3,875 nt of DNA, taken from positions 1 to 3,875 of the IMG/VR virus record IMGVR_UViG_2667527839_000009. One strand, given 5' to 3'. This DNA comes from a virus (lineage: Duplodnaviria > Heunggongvirae > Uroviricota > Caudoviricetes). Each line of letters begins with the position of its first letter. Position 1 is the first letter of the stretch. A model generated the notes under the pieces. That model did no database searches and was not told where the DNA came from. It saw only the letters and a program-made list of their open reading frames with translations. Below are positions 1 to 3,875 of this stretch, piece after piece. The position numbers and the translations under genes were made by a program.

Positions 1-672
1 ATGAAACAAATGTCACTAATTGAGATGGATGGATTTCTGAAAGGAAAATGCATCCCGCGAGACTTAAAGGTTAACGAAACAAACGCTGAATATCTGGTGC
101 GTAAATTTGGTGAGCTTGAATCAAAGATTGCATTACTTGAAGTGCAATTAAAGCTATCGGAAGCAGCAGAAAGAGCATGGGAGTCATCAATGATGCAGGC
201 TTGCGGCGAAGACGGGCCGAAATCAGTGGCTGATAAGTTTGCCGAACTTGAAGCCAAGTGCGCGGCGCTAGCAACTGATAACAAGAAAGCAATGGAGGCA
301 ATGAGGCAGGCAGATGCAGCCGTTAAGTTGGCACACGAGAAGTTTTCGGCGCTGGCGGCGGAGAATGCGATGTTGAAGCAACGGACACAGCAACTTATCG
401 ACATCATTAGTAATACTGACAATGACTACTGCATGTGTGGTTCTGCTATGAAAGACCACGTGCACAGCGGATGTGGTTATCCTACTGGCATGTTCGATTA
501 TTACTACAACCAGTGGCTGGAGTCAGATAACAAAACCCCAGCCACCGACGCTTTCCTGGCTGAAGTCCGGGCGCAGGGCGTGGAGATGTTTGCGGAGTGT
601 GCATACACACTTGAACATCATGATCACGCAGTAGCCTTCGCCGCTGAGCTTCGCAAAGGAGGCAACCAGTGA
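1..672 (+). CDS. Hypothetical phage protein: N-terminal coiled coil plus Cys/His-rich C-terminal domain, possibly Ea22-like; may be 5'-partial because the ORF begins at window base 1
   Basis: 223-codon ORF ending at TGA 670-672. Residues ~35-135 are heptad-like and Ala/Glu/Lys/Leu-rich (ELESKIALLEVQLKLSEAAERAW...AENAMLKQRTQQLIDII). The C-terminal part carries C144, C146, H153, H155, C158 (nt ~430-474) and C200, H206, H207, H209. An AGGAGG for the next gene lies inside its 3' end, consistent with an operon. The start cannot be verified because the frame is open to the window edge. Confidence 0.7.
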   Translation: MKQMSLIEMDGFLKGKCIPRDLKVNETNAEYLVRKFGELESKIALLEVQLKLSEAAERAWESSMMQACGEDGPKSVADKFAELEAKCAALATDNKKAMEAMRQADAAVKLAHEKFSALAAENAMLKQRTQQLIDIISNTDNDYCMCGSAMKDHVHSGCGYPTGMFDYYYNQWLESDNKTPATDAFLAEVRAQGVEMFAECAYTLEHHDHAVAFAAELRKGGNQ

Positions 673-968
673 GTGTATATCTTATTGATAAACGTCGACG
701 TGGGCAACAAATACCATCTGTAGGAATTCCGAATCACACATGGTTTTGCGTACTTGATATCGATGGTATGGATGCGTTGGTTGACACTCGTCATTACTGC
801 GATACCGCAACAGCTACTCCGGCGAAAGCAAAGAAAATGGCTGCTCTGATAGAAAACTGGACTCCACCTGATGGTTGGTGCAATGGGAATGATCGAGATT
901 GGCATGAAAAAATGAAGGGCTATATCTGCGATTTCTTACGTAAATGCAACGGCTTCAGGGTGATGTGA
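669..968 (+). CDS. Small hypothetical phage protein, Cys-rich (99 aa), GTG start
   Basis: GTG at 669-671 overlaps the upstream TGA stop (GTGA, 669-672). A consensus Shine-Dalgarno AGGAGG at 657-662 sits 6 nt upstream. The protein has Cys at 27, 44, 71, 87, 93 and His at 23, 42, 79. It occupies the position that ea8.5-type small genes hold in lambdoid phages, but I do not recognise its sequence. Confidence 0.65.
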   Translation: MSVYLIDKRRRGQQIPSVGIPNHTWFCVLDIDGMDALVDTRHYCDTATATPAKAKKMAALIENWTPPDGWCNGNDRDWHEKMKGYICDFLRKCNGFRVM

Positions 969-969
969 T

Positions 970-1380
970 ATGACCAAAATTAACTATCAGGCGCTGCGTG
1001 AAAAGGCAGAGAAAGCAACGAGTGGTGTGTGGTCGCTCGAATATGGAGAGGAGAGATTTGATGCTGGTGATGCGCTAATTCATCGTGAAGTTGTTGGATA
1101 TCTTCCCATTTGCAGAATTGAAGGAGCGTATCCTGAAAGCGGTTTCGATGAAGATTTCCAAATGGAACAGCAGGCCAATGCTGAATTCATCGCTGCAGCC
1201 AATCCGGCTACTGTGCTGGCACTGTTGGATGAACGGGAAAGAAACCAGCAATACATCAAACGCCGCGACCAGGAGAACGAGGATATTGCGCTTACGGTTG
1301 GGAGGCTGCGCGTTGAGCTGGAAGCCAAAGACCGGAGGATTGCTGAGCTGGAAATAAGCACTATGGCCCTGAGAGGATAA
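970..1380 (+). CDS. ead/Ea22-like family phage protein (136 aa)
   Basis: ATG at 970 lies 1 nt after the upstream stop (966-968). The N-terminus MTKINYQALREKAEKAT... and the motif ANAEFIAAANPATVLALLDERE match what I recall of ead/Ea22-like prophage proteins. A short C-terminal coiled-coil segment follows (RLRVELEAKDRRIAELE). The assignment is from memory, not from a search. Confidence 0.75.
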   Translation: MTKINYQALREKAEKATSGVWSLEYGEERFDAGDALIHREVVGYLPICRIEGAYPESGFDEDFQMEQQANAEFIAAANPATVLALLDERERNQQYIKRRDQENEDIALTVGRLRVELEAKDRRIAELEISTMALRG

Positions 1381-1383
1381 CCC

Positions 1384-2301
1384 ATGAGCACTATGACCAA
1401 ACAATGGCTGAAGCGGAAAATTGCAGAAATGGAAGCTGCCCGCGATGAAATCCCGTTCGGCCTGGACGAAGACGACAGCAATACACTTTCGGCGCTGCGT
1501 ATCGCGCTGGCATCGCTCGAAGCGGAGCCTGTGATTACCGTTGGCGATGATGGTGGTGATGCGCTTGCTTATCGCCGTCTTATTCAAACGTTCGCACCAG
1601 GAACGAAGCTATACACCGCCCCGTCAGCGCCAGAAAATGCTGACCCCGTAGCCTGGCTGTGGTCACACAGAAAACACCCTAGCGAAGTTACGCTTGTTCG
1701 TCCTGAAGATGACGAAAAAGCAGAAGCAGCTCTGTGGTCTGGATGGAGTTGTCAGGCGCTTTATGCAGCCTCTCCAGCGCCGGTATCTGTGCCCGCTGCG
1801 ATGGAAATGGATGATGACTTTGACAGCGCGTTTGAACACGGAAAAGCTGTCGGCTGGAACGCCTATCGCGCCGCCATGCTTCAGGCCGAACCTGTAAGTA
1901 ATAGTTATGAGTTACCGCTGGACTATCTGCAAGGACACAAAGACGGCCTGGAGTGGGCTGCACAATTGGCAGAAGCCAATCATCCGCAAACAGGTGACTG
2001 GTTGTACGACGACCCAATCGATCTTGCCAGGGCGATTCGCAAAGGTCCGGATATGCCTACTGTTCAGGGTGGCAATTCTCCGGTAACTCCGGATGGTTGG
2101 ATAAGCTGTAGTGAGCAGATGCCTTCCGCAGGGGAACAAGTGTTGGCGTACCGTCCAGACGCGCCGGAAAGTAATGATCCATTAATCAAGATGGCAACGT
2201 ACGTTGGCGGGTCAGCACACGGACACGGCTTTGATTGCTACTGCAAGCCAACCCACTGGATGCCGCTGCCAGCAGCACCGCAGGAGGTGAACCGTGGCTA
2301 A
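1384..2301 (+). CDS. DUF551-like phage protein (305 aa), acidic and Ala/Pro-rich, with conserved C-terminal ...THWMPLPAAP motif
   Basis: ATG at 1384 follows the upstream TAA (1378-1380) by 3 nt, with GAGAGGA at 1371-1377 as RBS. The C-terminal ~70 residues (PDGWISCSEQMP...VLAYR...THWMPLPAAPQE) resemble the DUF551 domain common in enterobacterial prophage early regions. The N-terminal two-thirds are rich in Asp/Glu/Ala/Pro. Stop is TAA at 2299-2301. Confidence 0.75.
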   Translation: MSTMTKQWLKRKIAEMEAARDEIPFGLDEDDSNTLSALRIALASLEAEPVITVGDDGGDALAYRRLIQTFAPGTKLYTAPSAPENADPVAWLWSHRKHPSEVTLVRPEDDEKAEAALWSGWSCQALYAASPAPVSVPAAMEMDDDFDSAFEHGKAVGWNAYRAAMLQAEPVSNSYELPLDYLQGHKDGLEWAAQLAEANHPQTGDWLYDDPIDLARAIRKGPDMPTVQGGNSPVTPDGWISCSEQMPSAGEQVLAYRPDAPESNDPLIKMATYVGGSAHGHGFDCYCKPTHWMPLPAAPQEVNRG

Positions 2302-2401
2302 CCTGCAACTTGCCGTCAAAGGTGAATAACAATCCTCGCATTCGCGGGGATTTCTTTTATCTGAACTCGCTACGGCGGGTTTTGTTTTATGGAGATGATA
2401 A

Positions 2402-2569
2402 ATGCACTTTCGAGTCACAGGTGAATGGAATGGAGAACCATTCAACAGAGTTATCGAAGCGGAGAACATCAACGACTGCTATGACCACTGGATGATATGG
2501 GCGCAGATAGCGCATGCAGACGTAACCAATATTCGAATTGAAGAACTGAAAGAACACCAAGCCGCCTGA
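2402..2569 (+). CDS. Small hypothetical phage protein (55 aa), not present in the supplied ORF track
   Basis: My own translation of ATG 2402 to TGA 2567-2569 gives MHFRVTGEWNGEPFNRVIEAENINDCYDHWMIWAQIAHADVTNIRIEELKEHQAA. GGAG at 2391-2394 lies 7 nt upstream of the ATG. The stop sits inside the stem of a terminator-like hairpin. The sequence reads like a compact globular protein, whereas the overlapping 86-aa ORF at 2235..2495 in another frame lacks an RBS and is low-complexity. Confidence 0.55.
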   Translation: MHFRVTGEWNGEPFNRVIEAENINDCYDHWMIWAQIAHADVTNIRIEELKEHQAA

Positions 2570-2581
2570 TGGCGGTTTTTT
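2559..2581 (+). terminator. Putative rho-independent terminator (GC stem, tetraloop, T-tract)
   Basis: CCGCC (2562-2566) pairs with GGCGG (2571-2575) around loop TGAT (2567-2570). The stem can extend through G2561-T2576 wobble and two A-T pairs. A run of six T (2576-2581) follows immediately. Confidence 0.45.
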
Positions 2582-2582
2582 C

Positions 2583-2622
2583 TTGCGTGTAATTGCGGAG
2601 ACTTTGCGATGTACTTAACACT
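2583..2622 (+). promoter_or_regulatory. pI-like cII-activated promoter: cII site TTGC-N6-TTGC straddling the -35 region, with the transcript start expected just inside xis
   Basis: TTGC at 2583-2586 and TTGC at 2593-2596 are separated by exactly 6 nt (GTGTAA), the architecture of lambda cII sites at pRE, pI and paQ. This is the only such pair I found in the window. By analogy with lambda pI, the start would fall a few nt past the xis ATG (2609), giving an int-only message. The -10 element and start site are not resolved from sequence. Confidence 0.6.
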
Positions 2623-2827
2623 TCAGGAGTGGAACGCACGCCAGCGGCGCCCAAGAAGCCTTGAAACAGTTCGTCGATGGGTACGCGAGTGCAGGATATT
2701 CCCTCCTCCGGTTAAGGATGGAAGAGAGTATCTGTTCCACGAATCAGCGGTAAAGGTTGACTTAAATCGACCAGTAACAGGTAGCCTTTTGAAGAGGATC
2801 AGAAATGGGAAGAAGGCGAAGTCATGA
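2609..2827 (+). CDS. xis: Excisionase Xis (lambda-type, 72 aa)
   Basis: The translation MYLTLQEWNARQRRPRSLETVRRWVRECRIFPPPVKDGREYLFHESAVKVDLNRPVTGSLLKRIRNGKKAKS matches lambda Xis as I recall it. GGAG at 2597-2600 lies 8 nt upstream of the ATG. Its 3' end overlaps int by 23 nt, as in lambda. Confidence 0.95.
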   Translation: MYLTLQEWNARQRRPRSLETVRRWVRECRIFPPPVKDGREYLFHESAVKVDLNRPVTGSLLKRIRNGKKAKS

Positions 2828-3875
2828 GCGCCGGGATTTACCCCCTAACCTTTATATAAGAAACAATGGATATTACTGCTACAGGGACCCAAGGACGGGT
2901 AAAGAGTTCGGATTAGGCAGAGACAGGAGGATAGCAATTACTGAAGCAATACAGGCAAACATTGAGTTATTTTCAGGACACAAACACAAGCCTCTGACAG
3001 CAAGAATCAACAGTGATAATTCTGTTACGTTACATTCATGGCTTGATCGCTACGAAAAAATCCTGGCCAGCAGAGGAATCAAGCAGAAGACACTCATAAA
3101 TTACATGAGCAAAATTAAAGCAATAAGGAGGGGTCTGCCTGATGCTCCACTTGAAGACATCACCACAAAAGAAATTGCGGCAATGCTCAATGGATACATA
3201 GACGAGGGCAAGGCGGCATCAGCCAAGTTAATCAGATCAACACTGAGCGATGCATTCCGAGAGGCAATAGCTGAAGGCCATATAACAACAAACCCGGTCG
3301 CTGCCACTCGCGCAGCAAAATCAGAGGTAAGGAGATCAAGACTTACGGCTGACGAATACCTGAAAATTTATCAAGCAGCAGAATCATCACCATGTTGGCT
3401 CAGACTTGCAATGGAACTGGCTGTTGTTACCGGGCAGCGAGTTGGGGATTTATGCGAAATGAAATGGTCTGATATCGTAGATGGATATCTTTATGTCGAG
3501 CAAAGCAAAACAGGCGTAAAAATTGCCATCCCTACAACATTGCATGTTGATGCTCTCGGGATATCAATGAAGGAAACACTTGATAAATGCAAAGAGATTC
3601 TTGGCGGAGAAACCATAATTGCATCTACTCGTCGTGAACCGCTTTCATCCGGCACAGTATCAAGGTATTTTATGCGCGCACGAAAAGCATCAGGTCTTTC
3701 CTTCGAAGGGGATCCGCCTACCTTTCACGAGTTGCGCAGTTTGTCTGCAAGACTCTATGAGAAGCAGATAAGCGATAAATTTGCTCAACATCTTCTCGGG
3801 CATAAGTCGGACACCATGGCATCACAGTATCGTGATGACAGAGGCAGGGAGTGGGACAAAATTGAAATCAAATAA
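2805..3875 (+). CDS. int: Tyrosine site-specific integrase Int (lambda-type, 356 aa), full length
   Basis: The translation matches lambda Int essentially along its whole length: the N-terminal arm-binding region (MGRRRSHERRDLPPNLYIRNNGYYCYRDPRTGKEF...), the motif HELRSLSARLY, and LLGHKSDTMASQY with the catalytic Tyr at residue 342 (codon 3828-3830, TAT). GAGGA at 2794-2798 precedes the ATG. Stop TAA at 3873-3875 is the last codon of the window. Confidence 0.97.
   Translation: MGRRRSHERRDLPPNLYIRNNGYYCYRDPRTGKEFGLGRDRRIAITEAIQANIELFSGHKHKPLTARINSDNSVTLHSWLDRYEKILASRGIKQKTLINYMSKIKAIRRGLPDAPLEDITTKEIAAMLNGYIDEGKAASAKLIRSTLSDAFREAIAEGHITTNPVAATRAAKSEVRRSRLTADEYLKIYQAAESSPCWLRLAMELAVVTGQRVGDLCEMKWSDIVDGYLYVEQSKTGVKIAIPTTLHVDALGISMKETLDKCKEILGGETIIASTRREPLSSGTVSRYFMRARKASGLSFEGDPPTFHELRSLSARLYEKQISDKFAQHLLGHKSDTMASQYRDDRGREWDKIEIK

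Follow-up and report, generated by a model that had tools for sequence, protein, structure and literature searches.

A mosaic phage DUF551 protein composed of a helical-hairpin head and four cassettes, with breakpoints at conserved linkers

Introduction

What precedes the conserved C-terminal domain of a phage-encoded DUF551 protein, and what could it serve? The question is raised by a gene located on the plus strand at positions 1384-2301 of a 3,875-nucleotide (nt) stretch of DNA, hereafter the window, which corresponds to positions 1 to 3,875 of the Caudoviricetes record IMGVR_UViG_2667527839_000009 of IMG/VR. The open reading frame (ORF) is complete, running from ATG to TAA, and encodes 305 residues, as a first-pass annotation made from the sequence letters had correctly placed it. 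That annotation recognized a DUF551-like module at the C-terminus, described the preceding 230 or so residues as one long, strongly acidic and Ala/Pro-rich extension, and speculated that this extension might mimic DNA in the manner of the anti-restriction proteins Ocr and ArdA. Here we show that, instead of forming a single tail, the N-terminal 237 residues comprise at least five separately inherited modules, a helical-hairpin head and four cassettes (B1, B2, C and D), whose breakpoints fall on short linkers. Based on these data, we favor, with moderate confidence, the interpretation that the gene encodes an early, modular accessory protein belonging to the Ea22/exo-xis slot, which would bind other proteins and thereby tune early development or the takeover of the host.

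Mosaic architecture and linker breakpoints

We defined six modules: A (residues 1-50), B1 (51-83), B2 (84-128), C (129-160), D (161-232) and E, the DUF551 domain (238-300). The domain boundaries, which the first-pass annotation had suggested looking for, emerge from several comparisons. The PHROG matches fall on separate segments of the protein (residues 1-52, 59-143, 128-178 and 224-304), and in an alignment of 19 relatives (A1) the blocks are present, absent or replaced independently of each other. For the phmmer comparison, we used 150 representatives of 50%-identity clusters, of which 2,857 match the protein at E ≤ 1e-3; the domain boundaries of these representatives cluster at residues ~1, 46-55, 76-90, 121-140, 151-172, 226-250 and 301-305. 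At the DNA level, the ends of the blastn high-scoring segment pairs (HSPs) against 83 related loci pile up on linker-coding islands; coverage reaches 60 in the homology island at gene nt 106-150, as compared with 12-21 in its flanks, and further islands were found at gene nt 361-405, 496-510, 676-750 and 856-918.

The module joints are Pro/Ala stretches, namely LRIALASLEAEPV, LYTAPSAP, LYAASPAPVSVP, RAAMLQAEPVSN and GGNSPVTPDGW, and a similarly conserved stretch, THWMPLPAAPQ, ends the protein at the C-terminal edge of DUF551. The peptides quoted in the first-pass annotation, APSAPENADP (residues 79-88) and ASPAPVSVPAAMEMDDDFD (residues 129-147), are both present, and the Pro/Ala stretches that it pointed out do exist as conserved linkers; their clustering does not go beyond that of shuffled sequences, as 7 Ala/Pro-rich 10-residue windows were observed against 3.2 ± 3.4 expected, and 17% of same-protein shuffles reach 7. 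The sole internal repeat is a 24-nt linker sequence (encoding LYxAxxAP) at positions 1608-1631 and 1758-1781, with 71% identity between the copies. Internal tandem repetition of cassettes was rejected, since the cassettes are not repeats of one another and only the linker is repeated.

In the classical model of lambdoid mosaicism, non-homologous segments are exchanged at short conserved boundary sequences. Exchange junctions located inside a gene, at domain boundaries, have already been reported for Ea22 (PMC10834534). Of 5,426 complete E. coli genomes, 2,154 (about 40%) contain pieces of the gene studied here, while at no single place in these genomes or in 50,697 phage records is 80% or more of the gene covered; the pieces are common and the exact combination is rare because recombination at the linker-coding islands swaps the cassettes.

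The 150 representatives display 30 combinations of the six modules. The commonest architecture is D-E (32/150), followed by C-D-E (19/150), and this ranking would fit a reading in which only the D-E unit is functional, whereas the rare B1/B2 insertions and the exact combination are neutral passengers of linker-mediated shuffling. The scarcity of B1 (5 of 269 relatives), the single contig from which the exact protein is on record, and what looks like a recombination scar at the end of the upstream ORF (see below) point in the same direction. We consider this reading quite improbable: the ORF is intact, the cassettes keep the reading frame across every junction, B2 is well conserved over 32 distinct versions, and the full A-B1-B2-C-D-E order recurs in 4 of the 150 representatives, which belong to other 50%-identity clusters.

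Individual modules

Structures were predicted with AlphaFold from two inputs, the full-length protein with 120 relatives and residues 155-303 with 29 diverse sequences. Confident predictions were obtained only for the head (pLDDT, the predicted local distance difference test score, of 76-89) and for DUF551 (66-83), the middle region staying below a pLDDT of 50.

Module A, the head (1384-1533, plus strand; residues 1-50), is a helical hairpin with helices at residues 6-22 and 29-46, and ends in the linker LRIALASLEAEPV (nt 1495-1533). PHROGs 5117, 660 and 3323 match residues 1-52 only. The head exists as several alleles, all of which start with MSTITKE and finish with RIALASLEAEPV. The latter sequence is similar to RIAELE, with which the Ea22 coiled coil ends, and in some relatives RIAELE is fused directly to AEPVSN followed by cassette D.

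Cassette B1 (1534-1632, plus strand; residues 51-83), which ends in the linker LYTAPSAP, is missing from most of the full-length relatives in alignment A1. Cassette B2 (1633-1767, plus strand; residues 84-128, PVAWLWSHRKH...WSCQALYAA) was found in 39 of the 269 relatives, and phmmer domains end at residues 76-90 and start at residues 121-130 around it. A match to phrog_28084 over residues 59-143 also includes B2.

Cassette C (1768-1863, plus strand; residues 129-160) consists of the linker PAPVSVP and an acidic patch, MEMDDDFDSAFEHGKAVGWNAY, and is the most negative module, with -0.156 charges per residue. It is present in 143 of the 269 relatives and is swapped for unrelated sequences in three others (P0079, P0106 and P0100). 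Within it, EMDDDFDSAF (residues 141-150, nt 1804-1833) resembles by eye DFDDDIPF, with which E. coli SSB ends; here the motif is internal and not C-terminal, and we mention a possible mimicry of the SSB tip as an idea only. We also considered cassette C as a degenerate Lar domain, given that GWNAYRAAMLQ can be compared by eye with the Lar C-terminal sequence VWNRRAAQLQ; this was not supported, as BLASTP aligns only the common LYxAPPAP linker and Pfam returns nothing at E ≤ 10.

Cassette D (1864-2079, plus strand; residues 161-232) begins with the linker RAAMLQAEPVSN, followed by a 50-residue core, ELPLDYLQ...KGPDMP (residues 176-225, nt 1909-2058). This core is the most conserved block of the protein, with a mean column identity of 82% over 33 diverse sequences, and it is at least 82% identical in every one of the 52 phage records with D, a set that spans temperate phages of E. 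coli, Salmonella and Klebsiella. Among 22 distinct DNA versions, the synonymous polymorphism (pS) is 0.243 and the nonsynonymous polymorphism (pN) is 0.018, a ratio of 0.07; cassette D is under strong purifying selection. With this ratio and freely varying synonymous sites (pS up to 0.94), D is therefore constrained as a protein and not as DNA. An RNA or DNA element within the D-coding stretch was rejected on the same synonymous variation, and Rfam finds nothing in the gene. Both AlphaFold runs gave three helices for D, with pLDDT values of 31-50 and a packing that is not confident, and no Pfam, PDB-sequence or fold match was found for it.

Outside the hosts named above, D is 92% identical in Aeromonas phage pIS4-A (NC_042037.1) and Vibrio phage pYD38-A (NC_021534.1), as it is in Klebsiella phages; this reflects either a very recent spread beyond the Enterobacteriaceae or doubtful host assignments.

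The linker between D and DUF551, GGNSPVTPDGW (2068-2100, plus strand), is a breakpoint in both DNA and protein comparisons: HSP starts accumulate at gene nt 676-690 and HSP ends at gene nt 706-750, and phmmer boundaries lie at residues 226-250.

The DUF551 domain (2095-2283, plus strand; residues 238-300) matches PF04448 over profile positions 1-68 of 68, with 52.2 bits against a cut-off of 22 and an E value of 1.2e-13, which confirms the conserved C-terminal module recognized at first pass, including its THWMPLPAAP ending (residues 290-299). Both signature edges, GWISCSEQMP and THWMPLP, are present. In the family alignment (A6; 35% mean column identity; W, S, P, W and P invariant), invariant edges (PDGWIxCSERMPE ... 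VTHWMPLPAAPQQ) surround a hypervariable core of 35-50 residues. AlphaFold predicts a small beta domain with strands at residues 252-257, 267-273 and 291-294. The Foldseek matches in BFVD are DUF551 proteins of many phages, in which stand-alone forms of 65-100 residues are common; in the PDB, the structural matches were of Tudor/chromo/SH3-like type and non-significant. The allele found here additionally holds HGHGFDCYC (residues 279-287), a possible metal-binding motif that has no counterpart in other alleles.

Charge, and tests of DNA mimicry

Under a DNA-mimic reading, the N-terminal region would, through its acidic residues, pass for the phosphate backbone of DNA and tie up restriction enzymes of type I, as Ocr and ArdA do. 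The protein is indeed acidic (isoelectric point, pI, 4.55; net charge -23), as are its residues 1-230 (pI 4.47; net charge -19), it carries two local acidic patches, and the gene is expected to be expressed early. The term 'strongly acidic' used at first pass, by comparison, did not hold. The protein carries -0.075 charges per residue and 15.1% Asp plus Glu, as against -0.239 and 29.1% for T7 Ocr, so that it falls short of the carboxylate density of Ocr (about -0.24 per residue and about 29%). These values are close to those of lambda Ea22 (-0.077; 19.8%), lambda Ea8.5 (-0.086; 18.3%) and lambda orf55 (-0.109; 18.2%), to the medians of the 269 relatives (-0.076; 15.2%), and to the Asp plus Glu content of the neighboring ORFs in the window (15.7-19.9%). 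The most negative 117-residue window has a net charge of -17 in this protein and of -28 in Ocr. Asp/Glu clustering is modest, with 12 observed against 2.5 ± 3.1 expected (1.5% of same-protein shuffles reach 12), and is limited to residues 21-32 (DEIPFGLDEDDS) and 141-147 (EMDDDFD).

Regarding homology, the ArdA profile (PF07275) gave no hidden Markov model (HMM) match, DUF551 being the only Pfam match in the protein, and no sequence homology to the Ocr family was detected in Pfam (residues 1-230, E ≤ 10) or among PDB sequences. The composition is typical of the exo-xis/Ea22 slot. DNA mimicry fails on charge density, homology and architecture; with regard to a fold that would present a DNA-like array of charges, the predicted model is poor. 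We rejected mimicry as the charge is ordinary for the slot across the protein, its modules, the neighboring ORFs, the lambda exo-xis proteins, the 269 relatives and Ocr itself, and regard it as extremely improbable. The interpretation offered at first pass stands in part; the DNA-mimic lead can be dropped.

Known families and anti-defence domains

Residues 1-230 match no family in Pfam (E ≤ 10), NCBIfam or PADLOC, and the PHROGs matching this part are all 'unknown function' families, each on a different segment. PADLOC-DB gave zero families at E ≤ 1 for the protein and its four upstream and downstream neighbors. The search of solved structures, made by phmmer with the whole protein and with profiles from the D (A5) and DUF551 (A6) alignments, returned only chance matches (2npn at E 0.36, de novo designed TIM barrels and AEBP2). 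No match to Lar (PF14354) was obtained for the protein, its C region or the homologue in phage Louie, and the protein has no paired CxxC.

Its relatives bear on a second reading, in which the cassettes would be small inhibitors of host immunity, for example restriction-alleviating ones, shuffled in an arms race as an array of counter-defence effectors, with the DUF551 core recognizing the target; this overlaps with the accessory role that we favor and names another class of targets. One sister protein, P0225, shares its head, linkers and DUF551 allele with the protein studied here, and its C-D slot is occupied by a Lar_restr_allev zinc ribbon (PF14354, E 7.4e-10) with two CxxC knuckles. In another, P0135, a dATP/dGTP pyrophosphohydrolase of the MazZ type comes after C-D and takes the place of DUF551. 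Among the 150 representatives, Lar occurs in 2 and the pyrophosphohydrolase in 3, and a phage MazZ pyrophosphohydrolase bearing DUF551 has been cited as an inhibitor of host restriction (PMC10834534). The constant edges and hypervariable core of DUF551, as well as the location of the gene in the early pL operon, also fit such effectors. On the other side, the protein studied here has neither a recognized anti-defence domain nor CxxC pairs, BLASTP aligns it with the Lar cassette of P0225 over the common linker only, neither Pfam nor PHROGs bears out the 'Lar-like' label of the Louie homologue, and its most constrained part, D, is nearly invariant, unlike an arms-race interface. We judge this counter-defence reading possible, if rather unlikely.

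The label in question, 'Lar-like restriction alleviation protein', is the annotation of the homologue in phage Louie (PQ850616.1; L001 2501-3289). DUF551 is the sole Pfam match of this homologue at E ≤ 10, and its PHROG matches are without exception of unknown function; the label was probably transferred from Lar-DUF551 fusions such as P0225.

Genomic context

The window corresponds to the exo-xis (early-left, pL) accessory region in a prophage of the lambda type. It is collinear with the lambda ea22 ... orf55-xis-int order, and all of its substantial ORFs are on the plus strand. Lambda from just upstream of orf55 through int is 97.7% identical to window positions 2326-3875, and the coiled-coil part of lambda ea22 is 92% identical to positions 1212-1323. 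The intervening 1-kb segment (1324-2325), which includes the DUF551 gene, stands in place of the C-terminal half of lambda Ea22 and ea8.5, and the gene lies, as exo-xis accessory genes do, on the pL strand between the recombination genes and xis-int. The identical protein (P0001) is listed in NCBI/UniRef as 'DUF551 domain-containing protein [Escherichia coli]' and comes from E. coli contig LLYP01000135.1, where it adjoins orf55-xis-int-ybhC; this is the only contig on record with the exact protein. The contig runs past int into ybhC, which indicates a lambda-type prophage at attλ. In related loci, orf55, xis or int was found downstream in 20 of 80.

Downstream of the DUF551 gene, the window contains a member of the lambda 'orf55' family (2402-2569, plus strand; phrog_676), lambda Xis (2609-2827, plus strand) and lambda Int (2805-3875, plus strand). 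Upstream are an ORF at 1-672 (plus strand), an ORF at 669-968 (plus strand) with a GTG start and a DUF7739 product, and an Ead/Ea22-like ORF of 136 residues at 970-1380 (plus strand; PF13935, E 3e-29). The product of the first (223 residues; acidic, pI 5.1) matches PHROGs 614, 14548, 492 and 368, all of unknown function, and contains a Cys/His cluster, CMCGSAMKDHVHSGC; its Pfam matches are weak and of coiled-coil type only. Its stop overlaps the GTG start of the DUF7739 ORF, and its relatives lie upstream of homologues of the DUF551 gene in 34 of 80 loci. A Shine-Dalgarno-like sequence, GAGAGGA (1371-1377, plus strand), can be read 6 nt 5′ of the ATG of the DUF551 gene, within the last codons of the Ead/Ea22-like ORF.

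The G+C content is 0.53-0.56 over positions 1200-2400 (the 3′ end of the Ea22-like ORF and the DUF551 gene) and 0.41-0.48 over int (2850-3750), a contrast consistent with a different origin of this segment and the lambda-derived flank. Three terminator-like hairpins followed by T runs were observed on the plus strand, two of them (2331-2352 and 2363-2382) in the 100-nt gap between the DUF551 gene and orf55, and the third (2559-2578) just past orf55. As the surrounding DNA is 97.7% identical to lambda, these are features of lambda and not of the inserted segment.

Relation to the upstream Ea22-like ORF

The upstream ORF encodes the Ead/Ea22 N-terminal region and coiled coil, without the C-terminal domain (CTD), and is 43% identical to residues 1-81 of lambda Ea22. 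It is in the same frame as the DUF551 gene, with only TAA CCC between them, and read-through of the stop would yield a 443-residue Ea22-type fusion. Such fusions exist elsewhere, since P0215 combines Ead_Ea22 with D and DUF551, and P0141 combines it with C and D; Ead_Ea22 is carried by 9 of the 150 representatives. The DUF551 protein itself is not a member of the Ead/Ea22 family, as PF13935 gave no match in it at E ≤ 0.1. In addition, phrog_60 spans the two adjacent ORFs, Ea22-like and DUF551. Of 80 IMG/VR loci, 29 have an Ea22-like ORF at most 600 nt upstream, and in 9 loci this ORF touches or overlaps the gene; most of these ORFs lack the CTD and encode 129-164 residues. By a Rosetta-stone argument, these fusions and the neighborhood suggest that the DUF551 protein and the Ea22-like product would act together, or that the former would substitute for the Ea22 CTD; the upstream Ea22-like protein is a likely functional partner. 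Ea22 has been described as a mosaic, tetrameric and prolysogenic protein with acidic C-terminal domains, one Stx-phage variant of which carries DUF551 (PMC10834534, PMC7093339).

The upstream ORF ends with RIAELE-ISTMALRG, and nt 1357-1371 (ATAAGCACTATGGCC) repeat the start of the DUF551 gene at 1384-1398 (ATGAGCACTATGACC) at 13 of 15 positions. The 3′ end of this ORF looks like a vestigial start of a cassette gene, left by recombination at the RIAELE junction.

Proposed role of the protein

In the interpretation that we favor, the gene would be a non-essential early (pL operon) accessory gene in the hypervariable slot that lambda fills with the Ea22 CTD and ea8.5. Its product may be pictured as 'beads on a string', in which the 50-residue head A, cassettes B1, B2, C and D, and the C-terminal DUF551 beta domain are joined by flexible Pro/Ala-rich linkers (SLEAEPV, LYxAPxAP, RAAMLQAEPVSN and GNSPVTPDGW). 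The DNA coding for these linkers provides short homology islands at which recombination between lambdoid prophages swaps cassettes. The head may bind to itself or to the coiled coil of the Ea22-like protein without CTD that is encoded just upstream. The constrained D and the variable core of DUF551 would in this way be exposed to targets of the host or of competing phages. The predicted outcome is a modulated early development, whether in host takeover or in the balance between lysis and lysogeny. Such effects have been shown for Ea22 and for further exo-xis genes, which shift the lysis-lysogeny decision (PMC10834534, PMC7093339, PMC3824215). The ORF, its DUF551 domain, the genomic position, the mosaic order of modules with breakpoints at linkers, the selection on D and the ordinary charge are shown by the data, and the oligomerization, the partnership with the Ea22-like protein, the binding of targets and the phenotype are the parts of this scheme that we infer.

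Several points weigh against this interpretation. No confident AlphaFold fold was obtained for residues 79-235, and the putative role of the cassettes as binding modules is suggested by their conservation. The docking of the head on the Ea22-like protein is suggested by gene adjacency and by fusions found elsewhere, and 51 of the 80 related loci have no Ea22-like ORF within 600 nt. For DUF551 proteins, the only reported phenotypes are those of YfdS, namely H2O2 sensitivity on deletion and replication inhibition when over-expressed with neighboring genes (PMC4776307). YfdS is much shorter than the protein studied here, and its phenotypes are indirect.

A bolder extension, which we hold to be unlikely, is a combinatorial cassette system in which linker islands would serve as recombination junctions inside one gene, assembling 'mini-polyvalent' early effectors from a common pool of heads (A or Ea22), small binding cassettes (B, C and D), Lar, the MazZ-like enzyme and alleles of DUF551. 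In this scheme, cassette D would represent a new, nearly invariant module of about 50 residues, which would fold upon contact with its target, an essential and conserved protein of the host.

Strong purifying selection, together with the occurrence of gene pieces in about 40% of complete E. coli genomes, makes cassette D a well-defined and cheap target for interaction screens. The boundaries at linker islands, with Lar and MazZ-like domains in sister slots, give a concrete and testable view of diversification in the exo-xis/Ea22 slot, and these sisters are a reason to examine such proteins for roles in lysogeny and counter-defence.

Comparison with known systems

Ea22 of lambda and Stx phages (PMC10834534, PMC7093339) resembles the DUF551 protein in its location in the exo-xis slot and the early pL unit, its organization as a head with variable C-terminal cargo, and its mild acidity. 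The Ea22_V2 variant of this family (PF13935) also shares DUF551 as cargo. In contrast with Ea22, the protein studied here has no Ead_Ea22 domain, its head is a 50-residue helical hairpin, it carries four extra cassettes, and it is encoded by a separate ORF. It shows no similarity to the lambda Ea22 CTD, whose structure is solved, or to Ea8.5, and has no PDB sequence match.

Proteins named 'EaA' in mEp043 c-1, Salmonella phages 65FD/66FD and Klebsiella phages carry a cassette D that is 92-100% identical, often with C and linkers, and 'EaA' of P22-like and lambdoid phages is encoded in the same early-left accessory region. These proteins differ in their heads and C-terminal domains, and 'EaA' is a positional name that adds no mechanism.

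YfdS, encoded by the CPS-53 prophage of E. coli K-12, and other DUF551 proteins have the same GW...P...THWMPLP signature and a prophage origin. Unlike the present protein, they have none of the cassettes A-D, and DUF551 is the sole domain reported in YfdS (PMC4776307). The phenotypes of YfdS, H2O2 sensitivity and, with yfdQRT, replication inhibition, have not been tied to the biochemistry of DUF551 (PMC4776307).

Ocr and ArdA, which are phage or plasmid proteins, have early expression and an acidic pI in common with this protein, whose charge density is three-fold lower than that of Ocr, for which searches gave no sequence match and, with a model that is not confident over residues 79-235, no fold match to either, and which is modular and linker-rich in contrast to a single rigid charged body. 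Lar (PF14354) of the Rac prophage is related to it through P0225, where Lar fills the same cassette slot on the same scaffold; the present protein has neither a Lar HMM match nor zinc-ribbon cysteines, and the likeness is limited to the common linker.

The polyvalent proteins described by Iyer et al. in 2017 (PMC5512222) share the concept of independently evolving, conflict-related domains that are shuffled on one polypeptide. They are large, frequently enter the cell together with the DNA, and have several domains recognizable as enzymatic or anti-restriction ones (PMC5512222), whereas the protein studied here has 305 residues, cassettes of 30-70 residues without known activity, only one recognizable domain (DUF551), and nothing pointing to packaging. 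It is an ordinary, already catalogued DUF551 protein of a known, uncharacterized kind, and what is particular to it is the rare combination of cassettes. By analogy, its mode of action would be closest to that of the cargo in an Ea22 variant, and conceptually it may be seen as a miniature polyvalent protein that stays outside the definition of that class.

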